A stretch of DNA of 64,000 nucleotides from Candidatus Pacearchaeota archaeon (lineage in GTDB: Archaea; Nanobdellota; Nanobdellia; Pacearchaeales; GW2011-AR1). Made by a program: the position numbers and the translations under genes. The notes under the pieces are model-generated. The model worked only from the letters and a program-made list of their open reading frames with translations. It did no database searches and had not been told where the DNA came from. The stretch is from positions 7,667 to 71,666 of the forward strand of contig JAFCFX010000001.1 in NCBI GenBank assembly GCA_017608405.1, read 5' to 3'. This document shows positions 721 to 31,192 of this stretch, in pieces. Each line of letters starts with the position of its first letter. The stretch's first letter is position 1.

Positions 721-825
721 ATGGTCCTGCCAAGAATCGGGCTCTGAATAAATTCAGGCCTAGCACTCAAATAAATTTAAGCACTAAACTAAAGTTCGAT
801 TTTTATATGGTCCTGCCAAGAATCG
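721..825 (-). repeat. 19-nt direct repeat of the tRNA-Val 3' end (721-739 and 807-825) bracketing a 67-nt two-hairpin module
   Basis: ATGGTCCTGCCAAGAATCG occurs twice (plus-strand coordinates). The second copy is the T-loop 3' part, T-stem 3' strand, acceptor 3' strand and discriminator of tRNA-Val. Between the copies are hairpins CTTAAAT/ATTTGAG and GGCCTGAA..TTCAGAGCC, written in tRNA orientation. The G.U pair exists only on the minus strand, which argues for a minus-strand transcript. Confidence 0.6.
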
Positions 826-919
826 AACTTGGGTTTCATCGAATCTGAAGTTATACTCTAAAGTTTATGATACTCATAACCTAGTCAGCGATGTGTCTTA
901 GCCATTGGACTACAGGACC
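808..919 (-). tRNA. tRNA-Val (anticodon GAC) with an intron of about 40 nt near the canonical 37/38 site
   Basis: Minus strand reads GGTCCTG-TA-GTCC-AATGGCTAA-GAC-A-CATCG-CTGACTA. After a 40-nt insert come CGATG, a T arm (CCAAG-TTCGATT-CTTGG), acceptor 3' strand CAGGACC and discriminator A. Acceptor strands are perfectly complementary and U33 is present. Anticodon identity is moderately sure. Confidence 0.7.
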
Positions 920-11803: not shown

Positions 11804-12706
11804 ATGGCATCAAAGATAAAAATAACATTTTTAGGCACAGGAGATCAGATTCCAAGTGCGCAGAGGAATCATACAGCTGTGCTTTTAACATATGAAGGAG
11901 AAAATATTTTGATTGATTGCGGAGAAGGAACTCAAAGACAATTTAGAAAAGCAAGATTAAATCCTTGCAAAGTAAATAGAATTTTAATTACTCATTGGCA
12001 TGGAGATCATGTTTTAGGACTTCCTGGTTTTTTTGCTACTTTAGCTCATAGTGGTTATAAAAAAACTCTTTATATTTATGGCCCAAGAGGAACAAAAAGA
12101 TTTGTGTTTGAACTTTTCAAGGTTTTTAATTTTAAAAGAGAATATGAAATTAAAATTAAAGAAGTAGCTGGGAAATTTTTTGAAACAAAAGACTTTTATT
12201 TAGAAGCTGAAAAAATGAAGCATGGAATTCCTTGCAATGCTTATAAATTTGTAAAAAAGGGGTTAATAAGAATTGATAAGGTAAAAATGAAAAAAGCAAA
12301 GCTGCTACAAGGACCTCATCTTCAGAAATTAAAACAAGGTAAAGATATTAAGTACAAAGGTAAAAAATACAAGGCTAAAAATTTAACTTTTGTTGATGGA
12401 GATAAAAAAATAAGTTTTGTTTTTGATACCTTAGATAACAAAAATATTCAAAAATTTGCAACAGATTCTGATGTGTTTGTTTGCGAGGCTCCTTTTAGTA
12501 ATGAAATTAAAAAACAAGCTACAGAGCATTTACATATGACTGCAAAACAAGTAGCAGAAAATGCAAAAAAAGCTAAAGTAAAAAAATTAATTTTAACTCA
12601 CCTGAGTCAGAGGTATGAAAAAAATCCCAAAGTAATTTTAAATGAAGCTAAAAAAGTATTTAAGAAGACTTTTATTGCTAATGATTTAGATGTTTTTGAG
12701 ATATAG
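11804..12706 (+). CDS. rnz: Ribonuclease Z (tRNA 3'-processing endonuclease, short form)
   Basis: Metallo-beta-lactamase fold: FLGTGDQIP, DCGEGTQRQ and the HWHGDH (HxHxDH) motif; 300 aa. Confidence 0.8.
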   Translation: MASKIKITFLGTGDQIPSAQRNHTAVLLTYEGENILIDCGEGTQRQFRKARLNPCKVNRILITHWHGDHVLGLPGFFATLAHSGYKKTLYIYGPRGTKRFVFELFKVFNFKREYEIKIKEVAGKFFETKDFYLEAEKMKHGIPCNAYKFVKKGLIRIDKVKMKKAKLLQGPHLQKLKQGKDIKYKGKKYKAKNLTFVDGDKKISFVFDTLDNKNIQKFATDSDVFVCEAPFSNEIKKQATEHLHMTAKQVAENAKKAKVKKLILTHLSQRYEKNPKVILNEAKKVFKKTFIANDLDVFEI

Positions 12707-13049: not shown

Positions 13050-13106
13050 GGGTCTGTAGTTCAGCCTGGATAAGCTGGAATGTAAAATTCTGCTAAATCC
13101 ATCTGA
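13050..13106 (+). ncRNA. Orphan tRNA 5'-half-like sequence (acceptor 5' strand plus D arm, no matching 3' half nearby)
   Basis: GGGTCTG-TA-GTTC-AGCCTGGATA-AGC resembles a tRNA 5' end, and its D loop is identical to that of the adjacent tRNA-Arg. No canonical 7-nt anticodon loop forms and no CAGACCC acceptor partner is found within reach. It ends 1 nt before tRNA-Arg(UCU). Confidence 0.35.
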
Positions 13107-13107
13107 C

Positions 13108-13199
13108 GCCCCTGTAGCTCAGCCTGGATAGAGCGACTGCCTTCTATCTATTGAGGTGAAGAAAGCAGTAGGTCGCAGGTTCGAATCCTGTCGGGGGCA
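13108..13199 (+). tRNA. tRNA-Arg (anticodon UCU) with an intron of about 17 nt
   Basis: GCCCCTG-TA-GCTC-AGCCTGGATA-GAGC-G-ACTGC-CTTCTA, then an insert (TCTATTGAGGTGAAGAA) of about 17 nt, then GCAGT, AGGTC, GCAGG-TTCGAAT-CCTGT, CGGGGGC and discriminator A. Confidence 0.75.
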
Positions 13200-13261: not shown

Positions 13262-13399
13262 GCGGAGGTGGCACAACGGTACTGCAGTCGGTTGCAGCTG
13301 GGGGGCACCAAGGTTCCCCTTACGATAACCCCTCCTTTTTCGAAAGGAGAAGGAAAGGCAAAACCCGACTTTTCGTGGGTTCGACTCCCACCCTCCGCT
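13262..13399 (+). tRNA. tRNA-Cys (anticodon GCA) with a structured intron of about 68 nt; discriminator U73
   Basis: GCGGAGG-TG-GCAC-AACGGTA-CTGC-A-GTCGG-TTGCAG, then an intron of about 68 nt holding two hairpins, then CCGAC-TTTTC-GTGGG-TTCGACT-CCCAC-CCTCCGC-T. U73 is the expected Cys identity element. Spurious ORFs on both strands cover this RNA in the track. Confidence 0.7.
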
Positions 13400-19989: not shown

Positions 19990-20045
19990 TTATTTGATAT
20001 ACTTTTTCTTAATAAGATCCCTTGCAATATTATCTATTTATTATT

Positions 20046-20147
20046 ATGTCTCTGAGGGGATTTTGGCTCAGAACAAGTTCTGGCCTGCGTTTTGATAAAT
20101 CAAAACACAAACCAAGGTTAAAATCATAATGTCTCTGAGGGGATTTT
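20046..20147 (-). repeat. 19-nt direct repeat of the tRNA-CAU 3' end (20046-20064 and 20129-20147) bracketing a 64-nt two-hairpin module
   Basis: ATGTCTCTGAGGGGATTTT occurs twice. Between the copies (tRNA orientation) are hairpins GTTTTGA/TCAAAAC and GGCCAGAA..TTCTGAGCC, the same architecture as the module downstream of tRNA-Val. Confidence 0.6.
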
Positions 20148-20259
20148 AACCCCCGACCTCTGCCTTTCTCAGTCAACACTGGAATCAAAGATTCCGTGAA
20201 TGTGTTTGAATAAATTCAAACCCATGAGAGCAGCGCTCTAAACCCTGAGCTACAGAGAC
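20130..20259 (-). tRNA. tRNA-Met or tRNA-Ile2 (anticodon CAU) with an intron of about 56 nt
   Basis: Minus strand reads GTCTCTG-TA-GCTC-AGGGTTTA-GAGC-G-CTGCT-CTCATG, then an intron of about 56 nt with two hairpins (GTTTGAAT/ATTCAAAC and GGAATC/GATTCC), then GGCAG-AGGTC-GGGGG-TTAAAAT-CCCCT-CAGAGAC-A. The anticodon stem lacks the GGG/CCC initiator signature, so this is an elongator Met or agmatidine-type Ile2. Confidence 0.7.
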
Positions 20260-21478: not shown

Positions 21479-21793
21479 TTAGAATAAAGAAGAAGATATT
21501 AGGGCTATTATGTTTAGAATTATTAATGAGTTTAGAATTTTAAGTGTTTTTACTCTTTTTTTTATGCTTTCATTTATGTTGTATTTGTTTGAAAAAGTTG
21601 TTTTAAATATGGGATTTGCAGCAAATAATGTTAGATTGGTTATTTTATGAGTGAACTTGGTAGGGTTTAATTCATGGTATAAGCTTGGAGATTTATTTTT
21701 GATATCGCTCATTATGCTATTCAAATATAGGTATCTAATTATTGCTAGAACCATTAAGGTAACTGCTAGTATTATTGTAAGGTAGAGATTCAT
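21479..21793 (-). CDS. Hypothetical membrane protein
   Basis: 104 aa, hydrophobic N- and C-terminal segments; 4-nt overlap with endA. Confidence 0.35.
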   Translation of the reverse strand: MNLYLTIILAVTLMVLAIIRYLYLNSIMSDIKNKSPSLYHELNPTKFTHKITNLTLFAANPIFKTTFSNKYNINESIKKRVKTLKILNSLIILNIIALISSSLF

Positions 21794-22329
21794 GGCCTAA
21801 CCCAACCTACCTCATAATAACTAACATCTCCTTCTTCATCAAGAATTGCTAGTAAAAGTTTCTTTTTTGTGGAATGTGCAACACGATTTTTTGCACTGAA
21901 TTCGTGCCAGGTCAATCTTTTTGATTCGTGATCTGCAAATACAATCCATTTTGCATGTATTTTTCCTGGTTTTTTTCCTTTGTCATAGACTCTGAAATCT
22001 GCTCCAAATTTTAAGGCTGTTTTTACAATATATCCTTTTTCTCTTAAATTTTTAAACACAGGATATTTTAATTGGATTCTTTTATCTATTCTTTTGAATT
22101 TGTTTAATAGTTCTTTTTTTTCAATTTTTTTGTTTCTCGAGTAGATTTCTATTTTGTTTTTTTCAACTAAGAATAAAGCTTCTGATAAGGTATATTGAAT
22201 TTTTTCCCCAATACGTTCCCCAAAGCAAGATTTTTTGCACAAATTATGAGCTTCACTAGTATTGCTGGATACAATCTGTCCAATAATGTGTGCTTGTATT
22301 TTTTCCATGTTTTGAATACGAGAGGACAA
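21790..22329 (-). CDS. endA: tRNA-splicing endonuclease (EndA), short homotetramer-type
   Basis: 179 aa. The C-terminal catalytic domain KTALKFGADFRVYDKGKKPGKIHAKWIVF carries the conserved G.DFRVY ... H.K motif. This is consistent with the four intron-bearing tRNAs in this window. Confidence 0.8.
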   Translation of the reverse strand: MSSRIQNMEKIQAHIIGQIVSSNTSEAHNLCKKSCFGERIGEKIQYTLSEALFLVEKNKIEIYSRNKKIEKKELLNKFKRIDKRIQLKYPVFKNLREKGYIVKTALKFGADFRVYDKGKKPGKIHAKWIVFADHESKRLTWHEFSAKNRVAHSTKKKLLLAILDEEGDVSYYEVGWVRP

Positions 22330-30152: not shown

Positions 30153-30286
30153 TTGATATATCCTTTTTTATATAGTCTTTATAATATATATAAAATAGAA
30201 TACAGGTTTAAAAACTTTTATTTTTTTAAAAATTGTTAAAATTACTAACCGAAAGTTATTTAATTGAATTTTTTTTAATATTTAGA

Positions 30287-31192
30287 ATGCTAAATAAGTT
30301 TCTAAAGGATGTTATAATTATTGTTGTTGGTAAACAAGTAGAAGACATTGCTGATCTGCTTAATGCAAAGAAACATGTAAATGAGTTTATAATTGCAAAG
30401 AAATTGGACCTAACAATAAATCAAACCAGAAATATTCTTTATAAAATTTCAGATCATGGGTTAGTTTCCTCAATTAGGAAAAAAGATAAGCGAAAAGGAT
30501 GGTATACTTACTTTTGGAAAATTGAAATTTTGAAGGCTTTAGAATTTTTAAAAGAAATTTTGATTAAGAAGAAATTACAGATCTTAAACCAAATTAAAAG
30601 CCGAGAAACAAAGCAATTTTATGTTTGTGAAAGATGCAATATTGAGTTTAATGAAGAAAATGCATTACTTCATAACTTTACTTGTGATGAGTGTGGGGGA
30701 ATTTTCTCTTTAAAAGATAATTCTAAAGTTTTAAAAGAATTTAAGAGACATTTAGAGAAAATTAATAGAGAATTATCTTTAGTTAACTCAGAAATTGAAA
30801 AAGAATTATTAAAAATAGAAAAACAAAGACAAAAGCAACTGGCAAAACAGAAAAGAGAAAAAGCAAAGAAAACCAAGGCCAGCATTGCTAAGAGGAGGAA
30901 AACTGCCGCACTAAAGGCAAAGGCGAAGGGCAAGGGGGTTAAGAAGAAAGTTAAGAAACCCATAAAAAAGACTAAGAAAAAGAAATTTGTTAAAAAGAAA
31001 TCAAGGGTTGTGAAGAAAAAAAAGCTAGTAAAAAAGATTAAGAAAAAGAAAATTGTAAAGAAGAAGTTAAAGAAGAAACTTAAAAAGAAACCAGGAAAAA
31101 AGAAAAAAATTATGAAGGAGAAGTTTGCTAAAAAGAAGCTAAAGGTTGTGAAGAAACCATTTAAGAAAATTAAAAAAGCTAGAAAAAAGTAA
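30287..31192 (+). CDS. tfe: Transcription factor E (TFE/TFIIE-alpha) with a Lys-rich C-terminal tail of about 120 aa
   Basis: Winged helix (ADLLNAKKHVNEFIIAKKLDLTINQTRNILYKISDHGLVSSIRKKDKRKGWYTYFWKI) plus zinc ribbon (CERCNIEF...FTCDECGG). The last 120 aa or so are about 60% K/R (KKKVKKPIKKTKKKKFVKKKSRVVKKKK...). Confidence 0.75.
   Translation: MLNKFLKDVIIIVVGKQVEDIADLLNAKKHVNEFIIAKKLDLTINQTRNILYKISDHGLVSSIRKKDKRKGWYTYFWKIEILKALEFLKEILIKKKLQILNQIKSRETKQFYVCERCNIEFNEENALLHNFTCDECGGIFSLKDNSKVLKEFKRHLEKINRELSLVNSEIEKELLKIEKQRQKQLAKQKREKAKKTKASIAKRRKTAALKAKAKGKGVKKKVKKPIKKTKKKKFVKKKSRVVKKKKLVKKIKKKKIVKKKLKKKLKKKPGKKKKIMKEKFAKKKLKVVKKPFKKIKKARKK

Follow-up and report, generated by a model that had tools for sequence, protein, structure and literature searches.

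Behind a tRNA(CAU) gene in a 64,000-nucleotide (nt) stretch of Candidatus Pacearchaeota archaeon contig JAFCFX010000001.1 (positions 7,667 to 71,666; assembly GCA_017608405.1), the whole of which is denoted the window here, lies a 64-nt insert that is flanked by two copies of the tRNA 3' end and folds into a closed four-way junction. Such modules form an apparently undescribed, widespread family of sequences of about 55-100 nt that are located immediately 3' of tRNA genes, always in the tRNA orientation, in Pacearchaeota/Woesearchaeota-type (DPANN) genomes. Our preferred interpretation, to which we assign a probability of roughly 55%, is that the 64 nt together with the second repeat copy are a non-autonomous insertion element specialised on tRNA 3' flanks. 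The evidence consists of the anatomy of the module, its strand-specific fold, a repeat and a pairing arm that match the target tRNA, the patchy distribution of the family, its arrays, and the decay of many copies.

Anatomy and conserved fold of the modules

The host gene, an elongator Met or Ile2 tRNA, occupies positions 20130-20259 (-) (130 nt; Rfam RF00005, 52.2 bits, model positions 1-71). A purpose-written scan for bulge-helix-bulge (BHB) motifs places a canonical 57-nt intron at 37/38 (20166-20222, -), between exon 1 (20223-20259, -) and exon 2 (20130-20165, -); the BHB consists of the central helix CUCA:UGAG (H = 4 bp) and flanking helices of h = 5 and h' = 3 bp, and this placement of the intron yields the anticodon CAU. 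CCA is not encoded, and the T-arm, GGGGG-TTAAAAT-CCCCT, contains an unusual T-loop. The 19-mer ATGTCTCTGAGGGGATTTT, which comprises tRNA positions 56-73 (AAAATCCCCTCAGAGACA) and one T, occurs exactly twice in the window, 83 nt apart, against an expected 0.04; none of 100 dinucleotide shuffles reached two copies, even with up to three mismatches allowed. Copy 1 (20129-20147, -) belongs to the functional tRNA, which it completes, so that the gene is undamaged, and copy 2 (20046-20064, -) repeats the same positions 56-73 and the T beyond the insert.

The 96-nt stretch that includes the spacer has a minimum free energy (MFE) of -27.5 kcal/mol, compared with -14.1 +/- 3.0 kcal/mol for 200 dinucleotide shuffles (z = -4.5, 0/200). 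Within the spacer, the predicted fold contains the hairpins GUUUUGA-UUUA-UCAAAAC and GGCCAGAA-CUUG-UUCUG(A)GCC, the latter with a bulged A, and these are embedded in a larger structure. The insert opens with a 5' arm, GATTTTAACC (20116-20125, -), denoted anti-T, which is the reverse complement of tRNA positions 52-61 (GGTTAAAATC) and is thus antisense to the T-loop. In both the MFE structure and the model alignment described below, the first 6 nt of this arm pair with the first 6 nt of copy 2 (AAAAUC), forming helix P1, and the last 12 nt of copy 2 (tRNA positions 62-73) constitute a single-stranded tail. The 3' end of the arm doubles as the 5' strand of hairpin 0 (hp0), AAC-CUUG-GUU (20110-20119, -), which is weak in the tRNA(CAU) copy and has the family consensus AACC-NNN-GGUU. 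Next come hp1, UGUGUUUUGA-UUUA-UCAAAACGCA (20086-20109, -), an extended form of the first of the two hairpins that is rich in G.U pairs, and hp2, GGC-C-AGAA-CUUG-UUCU-GA-GCC (20065-20085, -), which directly abuts copy 2 and is built of a 3-bp lower stem and a 4-5-bp upper stem, separated by a small internal loop with a conserved GA in the 3' strand and capped by a loop of 4 nt. With no unpaired bases between the helices, P1, hp0, hp1 and hp2 make up a closed four-way junction, in which the helices follow the order of the tRNA cloverleaf. Hereinafter, this copy is referred to as module B.

A sister copy, module A, is located behind tRNA-Val(GAC) (808-919, -), which contains a 40-nt intron and, under the canonical BHB reading, has U at position 37. 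The whole locus spans 721-919 (-), with copy 1 at 807-825, the insert at 740-806 and copy 2 at 721-739; the repeat is again of 19 nt (positions 56-73 and a T), with a spacing of 86 nt. The insert consists of the arm AATCGAAC, hp1, and hp2 at 740-760. Its final hairpin, GGCCUGAA-UUUA-UUCAG(A)GCC, differs from that of module B by one compensated pair, so that both are described by GGCCNGAA....TTCNGAGCC, where N is A:T or T:A, and the motif GGCCNGAANNNNTTCNGAGCC is found within the window in these two modules only. At both loci, the segment antisense to the T-loop starts 4-6 nt past the tRNA, with ATTTTAACC opposite GGTTAAAAT at the Met locus and AATCGAACTT opposite AAGTTCGATT at the Val locus. 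The match of the arm is specific because the two T-loops, TTAAAAT (Met) and TTCGATT (Val), both differ from the canonical TTCGAAT.

These results bear out most of a preliminary description of the locus, which had reported the tRNA 3'-end repeat at a distance of 83 nt (two exact copies, with 0/100 in shuffles), an intron-containing CAU tRNA (the RF00005 match with its 37/38 BHB intron), two hairpins between the repeats (both present in the fold and conserved in the family), and an analogous tRNA-Val locus (of the same anatomy, with a homologous module). The two hairpins stand, whereas the anatomy as then drawn was incomplete, lacking the anti-T arm, the P1 closure into a four-way junction and hp0. 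The same description had named AT-rich composition, with no conservation in relatives, as a possible trivial source of the hairpin similarity; this is refuted by a fold far below that of shuffled sequences and by its conservation in relatives.

Conservation of the fold was assessed with a covariance model, as MAFFT alone could not align the hairpins. The model, R1, was built from five metagenome copies only, with the four-way junction as the structure. It recovered module B over its full length (20057-20126, -; 47.3 bits, E = 1.3e-12 over 1.14 Mb; antisense 14.9 bits) and, with filters off, module A (732-803, -; 24.1 bits; antisense 5.1 bits). R1 also matched five loci in metagenome-assembled genomes (MAGs) of Pacearchaeota and Woesearchaeota in GTDB (L033, L031, L010, L050 and L018; L-numbers designate loci throughout), and yielded 42 matches among the listed metagenome loci. 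In the alignment of these 42 matches, 94.3% of the cells are paired, compared with 72.6% when partners are shuffled, and compensatory changes occur in 22 of the 29 pairs (171 cells versus 54 in shuffles), values that were reached in 0 of 500 shuffles; sliding the partners by 1-3 columns leaves at most 58% paired. Compensatory changes extend to every pair of hp1 (12 pairs) and of hp2 (7 pairs, in helices 4 and 5). For hp0 (helix 2), 97.6% of the cells are paired in this alignment, which is fitted to R1 and in which P1 and hp0 are partly fixed by the search pattern, so that the evidence for these two helices is the unbiased set. The GA internal loop of hp2 and the junction bases are conserved in the family. 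MFE prediction alone yields the four-way junction in most of the 34 unique copies. In 27 of 30 copies, the predicted fold of the sense strand is of lower free energy than that of the antisense strand (mean -23.0 versus -17.8 kcal/mol; Wilcoxon p = 1e-5); this bias is the signature of G.U (or G.T) pairs and thus indicates that the structure is used on the tRNA-sense strand.

Distribution of the family and matching to the local tRNA

Family members were collected in two ways. A syntenic set of 80 loci was fetched from GTDB species representatives via the 291-amino-acid (aa) protein that neighbours tRNA(CAU), and a downstream copy was defined as a repeat of the tRNA 3' end within 250 nt. Metagenomes were searched with a pattern consisting of a tRNA T-loop, a gap, the canonical arm, a gap and GGTTT, which gave at least 120 loci, about half of them true modules and the remainder convergent tRNA genes; family counts cover the listed matches. 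Across the 80 loci and the window, 9 of 139 tRNAs carry a module (~6%): three Leu(TAG), two Arg(TCT), one Met, one Cys and the two tRNAs of the window. Among 68 orthologous, syntenic tRNA(CAU) genes, a module is present in two, those of the window and L007. In all, R1 detects about 50 copies besides modules A and B among the listed loci, and their hosts are Leu, Arg, Lys, Gln, Met, Val and Cys tRNAs on Pacearchaeota-like contigs. Introns are present in 50 of the 139 tRNAs of the Pacearchaeales loci, and most family members follow intron-less tRNAs.

The downstream repeat begins exactly at position 56 in 31 of the 49 listed modules, and its right edge lies 0-5 nt beyond the tRNA end. The linker between the tRNA and the module is a variable junction of 2-21 nt with filler. 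Nine of the 49 are tandem, with identity continuing into a second module. The most complex array follows tRNA-Arg(TCT) of L033 (7590-8070, -), where three modules of two types and four copies of the 3' end are arranged in series. The first module is of the cloverleaf type, and the next two are longer (~130 nt) units, denoted type II, that open with a hairpin and an A-run and include the T-arm-like CCTGGGTTCGA. The related locus L062 (10630-10850, -) contains only a type II unit orthologous to the most distal one of L033; thus, new units were added next to the tRNA. Decay is apparent as mismatches in the distal repeats of L033, as truncation in L018 and as erosion of the second repeat copy in L010. 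Orthologous modules can be better conserved than their surroundings: in the pair L126/L150, the module is 88% identical and the flanks 63-69%, and the same tendency is apparent in L121/L124.

The repeat and the arm follow the local tRNA, whereas the interior follows the family. Interiors that are 84-94% identical are found next to tRNAs with 3-8 differences among their last 12 nt. In L199, modules behind tRNA-Arg(TCT) and tRNA-Cys(GCA) differ at 5 of their first 10 positions and are identical at 59 of the 61 positions past these, and each is flanked by the 3' end of its own tRNA. L110 and L128 display a like pattern, a shared interior with a local repeat and arm, for other subfamilies. The arm tracks non-canonical T-loops as well, with GATTTT for TTAAAAT in module B, AATCG for TTCGATT in module A and ATTTGAAC for TTCAAAT (L106/L110/L192 and L184). 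In L112, L166, L184 and L171, it reaches the tRNA-specific bases 62-64, and in L128 it complements 15 of 17 local bases. In L141 and L007, the repeat begins at other positions, yet its first 7-8 nt are still matched by the arm as their reverse complement, and the arms of both loci complement tRNA-specific bases. At L141 (4053-4181, -), the tRNA-Met has an intron and an aberrant T-arm (GAGGTCAGCACTC...). The insert behind it is 80 nt long, and the first 8 nt of its arm (CTGACCTC) pair with the first 8 nt of a 24-nt repeat starting in the T-stem; the rule that the arm pairs with the start of the repeat holds even with this different repeat boundary. A reproducible oddity concerns the TTCGAGT loops, for which two independent, unrelated subfamilies carry GACGAGAA in place of the exact complement GACTCGAA, at tRNA-Cys of L199 (3039-3111, +) and tRNA-Leu(TAA) of L128 (2714-2799, -), resulting in a tandem G.A in the helix opposite positions 57-58.

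Several loci contain related forms with other interiors. In L240 (13640-13760, +, an IMG/VR contig), L196 (8780-8920, +) and L050 (10090-10340, +), the inner hairpins are absent or replaced. In L240 and L196, an antisense T-arm is directly followed by a sense T-arm-like segment (GGTTTGAAATCC... and GGTTTCGAATCC..., respectively), and L196 and L050 have a further repeated piece in common, CAAATCCGAGCGACTT / GGGGTCGGGAGT. These forms may be precursors or other module types. Metagenome loci L121, L124 and L181, L128 and L188, L138, L144 and L164, and L142 show a like design with 100-200-nt interiors, in which an arm antisense to the T-loop comes first, the interior is folded, and the repeat extends to the 3' end from about position 56-60. 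The contigs with long interiors have G+C contents of 21-52% and probably represent other lineages; the tRNAs in L128/L188, L138/L144/L164 and L142 encode CCA, and there the repeat takes in the CCA and some of the flank. Because such designs occur in contigs of higher G+C content whose tRNAs encode CCA, the module principle may extend beyond DPANN.

Origin of the modules and relationship to known elements

Under the insertion reading, the modules would be non-autonomous mobile or hitch-hiking DNA. The repeat would be made from the target at insertion, in the manner of a target-site duplication (TSD), rather than brought along by the element, and the strand-specific folded form would be recognised by putative trans-acting machinery, the active form being either RNA transcribed from the tRNA promoter by read-through or single-stranded DNA of the sense strand. 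The link of the element to tRNA genes would lie in the complementarity between the arm and the T-loop, which would either guide target recognition or be needed for P1 to form. The combination of a precise junction in the T-loop with a variable, filler-containing junction recalls target-primed or nick-primed copying rather than cut-and-paste transposition. There is a fair chance that the insertion mechanism is new. A more specific version is tentative and, in our estimate, unlikely: the module would be a guide-bearing miniature element, a protein-less four-way junction of ~70 nt whose arm chooses the target tRNA and is re-specified for each tRNA, moving through a strand-specific RNA or single-stranded DNA intermediate that might arise by read-through from the tRNA promoter, and leaving an 18-nt duplication. 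In a variant of this scheme, the junction itself might be catalytic, or it might be handled as a tRNA mimic by tRNA-processing enzymes.

A number of observations weigh against insertion. We know of no insertion chemistry whose duplication would run from a fixed point within the T-loop to the end of the tRNA. Pfam searches of 36 open reading frames (ORFs) of the window detected no transposase, integrase, reverse transcriptase, Cas1 or other candidate enzyme. The 10-20-kb loci contain no further copy of any tRNA 3' end and no long-range repeats, hence no autonomous relative, and so give no sign of a larger integrated element. A viral or plasmid origin was likewise rejected: none of the 78 loci from the IMG/VR pattern scan is a module, the only related sequence being the hairpin form without inner hairpins in L240, and blastn against phage and plasmid records found no module. 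In roughly half of the copies, a run of four or more T lies between the tRNA and the module and could bring read-through transcription to a halt. The conservation of the L126/L150 pair fits purifying selection, possibly for a host function, equally with recent spread, and the identity of interiors within a genome could stem from gene conversion between resident modules. Finally, the metagenome pattern fixes the canonical arm, so that covariation in P1 and hp0 leans on the smaller unbiased set.

Among the alternatives to insertion by a dedicated element, a quite unlikely one holds that the repeats are attachment sites (attL and attR) of an integrase, the 64 nt being a passenger similar to a cis-mobilizable element (CIME), or a remnant, mobilised in trans. 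Direct repeats identical to the 3' part of the tRNA do flank the insert, and they are of the classic att kind, starting in the T-loop and ending at the tRNA end as expected from gene restoration; tandem and mixed arrays are observed, and other elements that target tRNAs likewise leave partial tRNAs in arrays (tycheposon preprint). Conservative recombination, however, carries the repeat along with the element, whereas near-identical interiors here are combined with different local repeats and arms; an attP core travelling with the element is therefore rejected, given interiors that are 84-97% identical next to differing, locally matching repeats. The sequence upstream of copy 2 is unlike the 5' strand of the T-stem that a symmetric core site needs, neither an integrase in the window nor a large element with the same repeats nor a module on viral contigs was found, and the uniform size, compensated fold and strand asymmetry are unexpected of deletion remnants. 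An 83-bp double-stranded circle is, moreover, too small to be a recombination substrate. Similarly doubtful is the possibility that the modules are a host-useful structured RNA derived from the tRNA 3' trailer, such as a tRNA-like processing or stability element, an antisense RNA that binds the T-loop, or a decoy, spread by duplication. Strong covariation and sense-strand specificity do point to RNA or to one DNA strand; P1, hp0, hp1 and hp2 resemble the acceptor stem, D arm, anticodon arm and T arm, respectively; the GA loop of hp2 and the junction bases are conserved; arm pairing is maintained with non-canonical T-loops; and in L126/L150 and L121/L124 the module is better conserved than its flanks. 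Such a function is difficult to reconcile with the rarity of modules, which occur at 2 of 68 orthologous tRNA(CAU) loci and ~6% of tRNAs, with the many decayed or truncated copies, and with T-runs that may terminate transcription before half of the modules, and would, on its own, leave the exact duplication of positions 56-73 unaccounted for. No Rfam family is matched even at permissive thresholds: the scan at gathering thresholds returned only tRNAs, and permissive E-value scans of both modules gave chance-level scores (17 bits or less). A box C/D sRNA, such as one guiding Cm56 formation in the T-loop, was rejected specifically, with RUGAUGA or UGAUGA in 0 of 34 modules (CUGA lies near the 3' end in 3 of 34).

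Two further explanations were weighed. Polymerase stalling and template switching (snap-back) at the T-arm, with copying between loci through the near-universal T-loop as microhomology and no dedicated machinery, would account for the succession of a direct copy (56-73), an inverted piece (61-52) and another direct copy, which is a two-switch pattern, as well as for a repeat whose left edge is fixed where T-loop homology ends and for a left junction that varies and includes filler; L240 and L196 are forms in which the two inner hairpins are missing. We consider this replication or repair by-product very unlikely, as it explains neither the conserved hp1/hp2 fold with its compensatory changes, nor why arm and repeat fit the local sequence exactly even at T-loops without homology to the canonical one (for example, module B and L141), nor the abundance of the family. 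The remaining scheme operates at the RNA level: EndA, the tRNA-splicing endonuclease, would remove copy 1 and the module as an alternative exon or T-loop intron, copy 2 would serve as the 3' end, and the module would be kin to the tRNA intron. Both module-bearing tRNAs of the window do have introns, endA is 1.5 kb away, and there is a 12-nt identity between the tRNA(CAU) intron and hp2 of module A. Yet the BHB scan, which recovers the real 37/38 introns of both tRNAs, found no BHB (H = 4 with both flanking helices) common to both loci among 20 in-register options, most family members are behind intron-less tRNAs, and the spliced and unspliced tRNA would be the same; an intron inside the mature tRNA is rejected also because copy 1 already completes the tRNA and the module lies in the 3' flank. 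The relationship between the first intron hairpin and the module, suggested in the preliminary description, proved marginal at the locus itself (local alignment score 18 versus 13.0 +/- 2.3 in shuffles, p ~0.05) and was not borne out across loci. Among 61 introns and 34 modules compared with BLAST, the best match, 28.2 bits, equals that of the antisense control (28.2 bits) and exceeds that of the reversed-sequence control (24.3 bits), both controls preserving composition and hairpin character, so that the similarity is not clearly above structure-preserving controls; an excess of 24-26-bit matches is inflated by homologous tRNA-Met introns. R1 scores 5-7 bits on the tRNA(CAU) intron region, against 47.3 bits for the module. 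Membership of this intron in the module family and kinship between the two are thus not supported, and we regard the splicing scheme as highly improbable.

Insertion specialised on tRNA 3' flanks remains our preferred reading, and the modules can be set against known systems on that basis. Partial tRNA repeats beside tRNA genes are already known as integration footprints, and the modules would belong with the insertion elements of tRNA 3' ends. The att sites of archaeal integrases are mostly found in the 3'-distal portion of tRNA genes and have a median length of 17 bp in Thaumarchaeota, where single tRNAs with arrays have been described as well (PMC6563490). The modules resemble tyrosine-integrase attL/attR in that a 3'-distal tRNA repeat of ~17-20 nt flanks foreign DNA, the tRNA is intact and arrays form at one tRNA (PMC6563490). 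Unlike tyrosine-integrase elements, they have gene-less inserts of 55-100 nt for which no integrase partner was found, their repeat and arm match the host tRNA while the interior stays constant, and they form a conserved four-way junction whose closing helix is built with the repeat itself. Casposons at tRNA 3' ends have a TSD of 14 bp in M. mazei and 35 bp in a distant relative, and share with the modules the target-derived duplication, the targeting of tRNA 3' ends and tandem arrays with one shared duplication (PMC4779613). In contrast to casposons, the modules lack terminal inverted repeats (0-2 nt) and Cas1 (in the scanned window ORFs), are 100-fold smaller, and have a duplication that spans position 56 to the tRNA end, with a variable right edge, rather than the last 4 nt of the tRNA and the flank; casposon or Cas1-type integration was rejected on these grounds, including the variable repeat length. 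As in arrays of clustered regularly interspaced short palindromic repeats (CRISPR), the newest module adjoins the 'leader' (the tRNA), and distal repeats decay.

Small size, lack of coding capacity, extensive folding and preference for one strand are shared with miniature inverted-repeat transposable elements (MITEs) and with the palindrome-associated elements of the IS200/IS605 group. IS608 chooses its target through base pairing between a segment of the element and the target. Insertion of IS200/IS605 elements takes place genome-wide on the 3' side of a 4-5-nt motif and leaves the target unduplicated, and MITEs have terminal inverted repeats and short fixed duplications. The modules differ from both in their duplication and ends; no TnpA or TnpB was seen among the scanned ORFs of the window. 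Identity as a MITE was rejected because terminal inverted repeats are absent (0-2 nt of in-register end complementarity with the repeat excluded, the closing helix using the repeat) and because, instead of a fixed TSD of 2-10 bp, there is a duplication of 18-23 nt or more with a left edge fixed at 56 and a variable right edge. If hp1 and hp2 alone are taken as the element, it sits 3' of GGTT without a duplication of its own, and the 18-nt repeat and the arm are then unexplained. It has been suggested that archaeal tRNA introns, 'transposed' introns and split tRNAs stem from mobile elements (PMC3293823). The modules are like archaeal tRNA introns in being structured extra sequence at tRNA genes, with similar inserts at different tRNAs (PMC3293823), and unlike them in lying outside the mature tRNA, without a BHB, next to an uninterrupted gene and flanked by a 3'-end duplication. 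A split-tRNA 3' fragment is unnecessary as an explanation because a complete tRNA adjoins, and the window showed no other 5' part whose acceptor strand is GTCTCTG. tRNA-derived short interspersed nuclear elements (SINEs) and tRNA-like structures are short, non-autonomous cloverleaf units with tRNA-type transcription, a variable-length target duplication, and one precise and one imprecise junction. The modules share with tRNA-derived SINEs the small size, non-autonomy, cloverleaf topology and pair of precise and imprecise junctions, and differ from them in lacking sequence similarity to tRNA (no match to the Rfam tRNA model), an internal promoter and an A-rich tail, and in that no reverse transcriptase is known to be linked to them. 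The literature searched yielded no description of 55-100-nt four-way-junction inserts closed by a helix between a T-loop-antisense arm and the duplicated half of the T-loop, with arm and repeat re-specified at each tRNA, only the att-site and casposon background.

DPANN archaea have tiny genomes, and their mobile DNA is little known; the modules are present at roughly one tRNA gene in fifteen. If mobile, they would represent an insertion mechanism not yet described, characterised by a junction fixed in the T-loop, a target-matched arm and strand-specific folding. The family bears on how archaeal tRNA genes gain extra sequence, be it introns, split genes or partial copies, on why tRNA 3' ends are hot spots for foreign DNA, and on whether a short pairing arm can direct insertion where no dedicated guide-RNA system is involved. 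In MAGs, the annotation of tRNAs and att sites will also be confused by the partial tRNA copies and the folded inserts.

Genomic setting of the window

The window, part of a 152-kb contig of JGI metagenome 3300033153 (Ga0366824_1000030), has a G+C content of 31%, and the closest relatives of its proteins, at up to 65% identity, are encoded in MAGs of Pacearchaeota, Woesearchaeota and Nanoarchaeota. The neighbours are archaeal housekeeping genes that code for GlyRS, a HIT protein, ribosomal protein S17e, the conserved 291-aa protein, EndA and LeuRS, and the Pfam scan of the 36 ORFs identified housekeeping proteins only, including MCM, TBP, FtsZ, aminoacyl-tRNA synthetases, GatDE and EndA. The endA gene (21790-22329, -) encodes a 179-aa protein with the N and C domains of the Pfam tRNA_int_endo families and the length of the homotetrameric alpha4 type. 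A 300-aa protein of the metallo-beta-lactamase fold (11804-12706, +) may be RNase Z according to its Pfam listing, so that the predicted gene content of the window may include, in addition to EndA, a second tRNA-processing gene close to its tRNAs. Module A is followed on the same strand by rpL44e (361-678, -). The modules have no coding capacity, as no ORF fits inside; a 52-aa ORF at 20030-20188 that covers module B is taken as spurious because it overlaps the tRNA. The next 10 kb of the contig beyond the window contain one further tRNA (Ala), without a module.

In its default mode, ARAGORN overlooked three of the seven tRNAs of the window (808-919, 13262-13399 and 20130-20259, with introns of 40, 66 and 57 nt), among them both module-bearing ones; in intron mode, it misplaced the intron and called the CAU tRNA Ser(AGA) and a tRNA-Arg(TCT) SeC(TCA). 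Upstream of a complete tRNA-Arg(TCT) at 13108-13199, a 5' tRNA-like fragment, GGGTCTGTAGTTCAGCCTGGATAAGC, is located at 13050-13107 (+), at a distance of 58 nt, and matches the 5' part of that tRNA at 18 of 19 nt (repeat D13, 13054-13072 versus 13112-13130). This fragment may be a mirror-image partial duplication of the 5' end of tRNA-Arg or a remnant of another tRNA. Elsewhere in the window, four copies of a lysine-rich imperfect tandem repeat, AAAAAGA...GAAGAAA (30965-31156, +), are found within ORF 30233-31192, the counterpart of a TFIIE-alpha-like gene in L001, and are ordinary low-complexity coding sequence.

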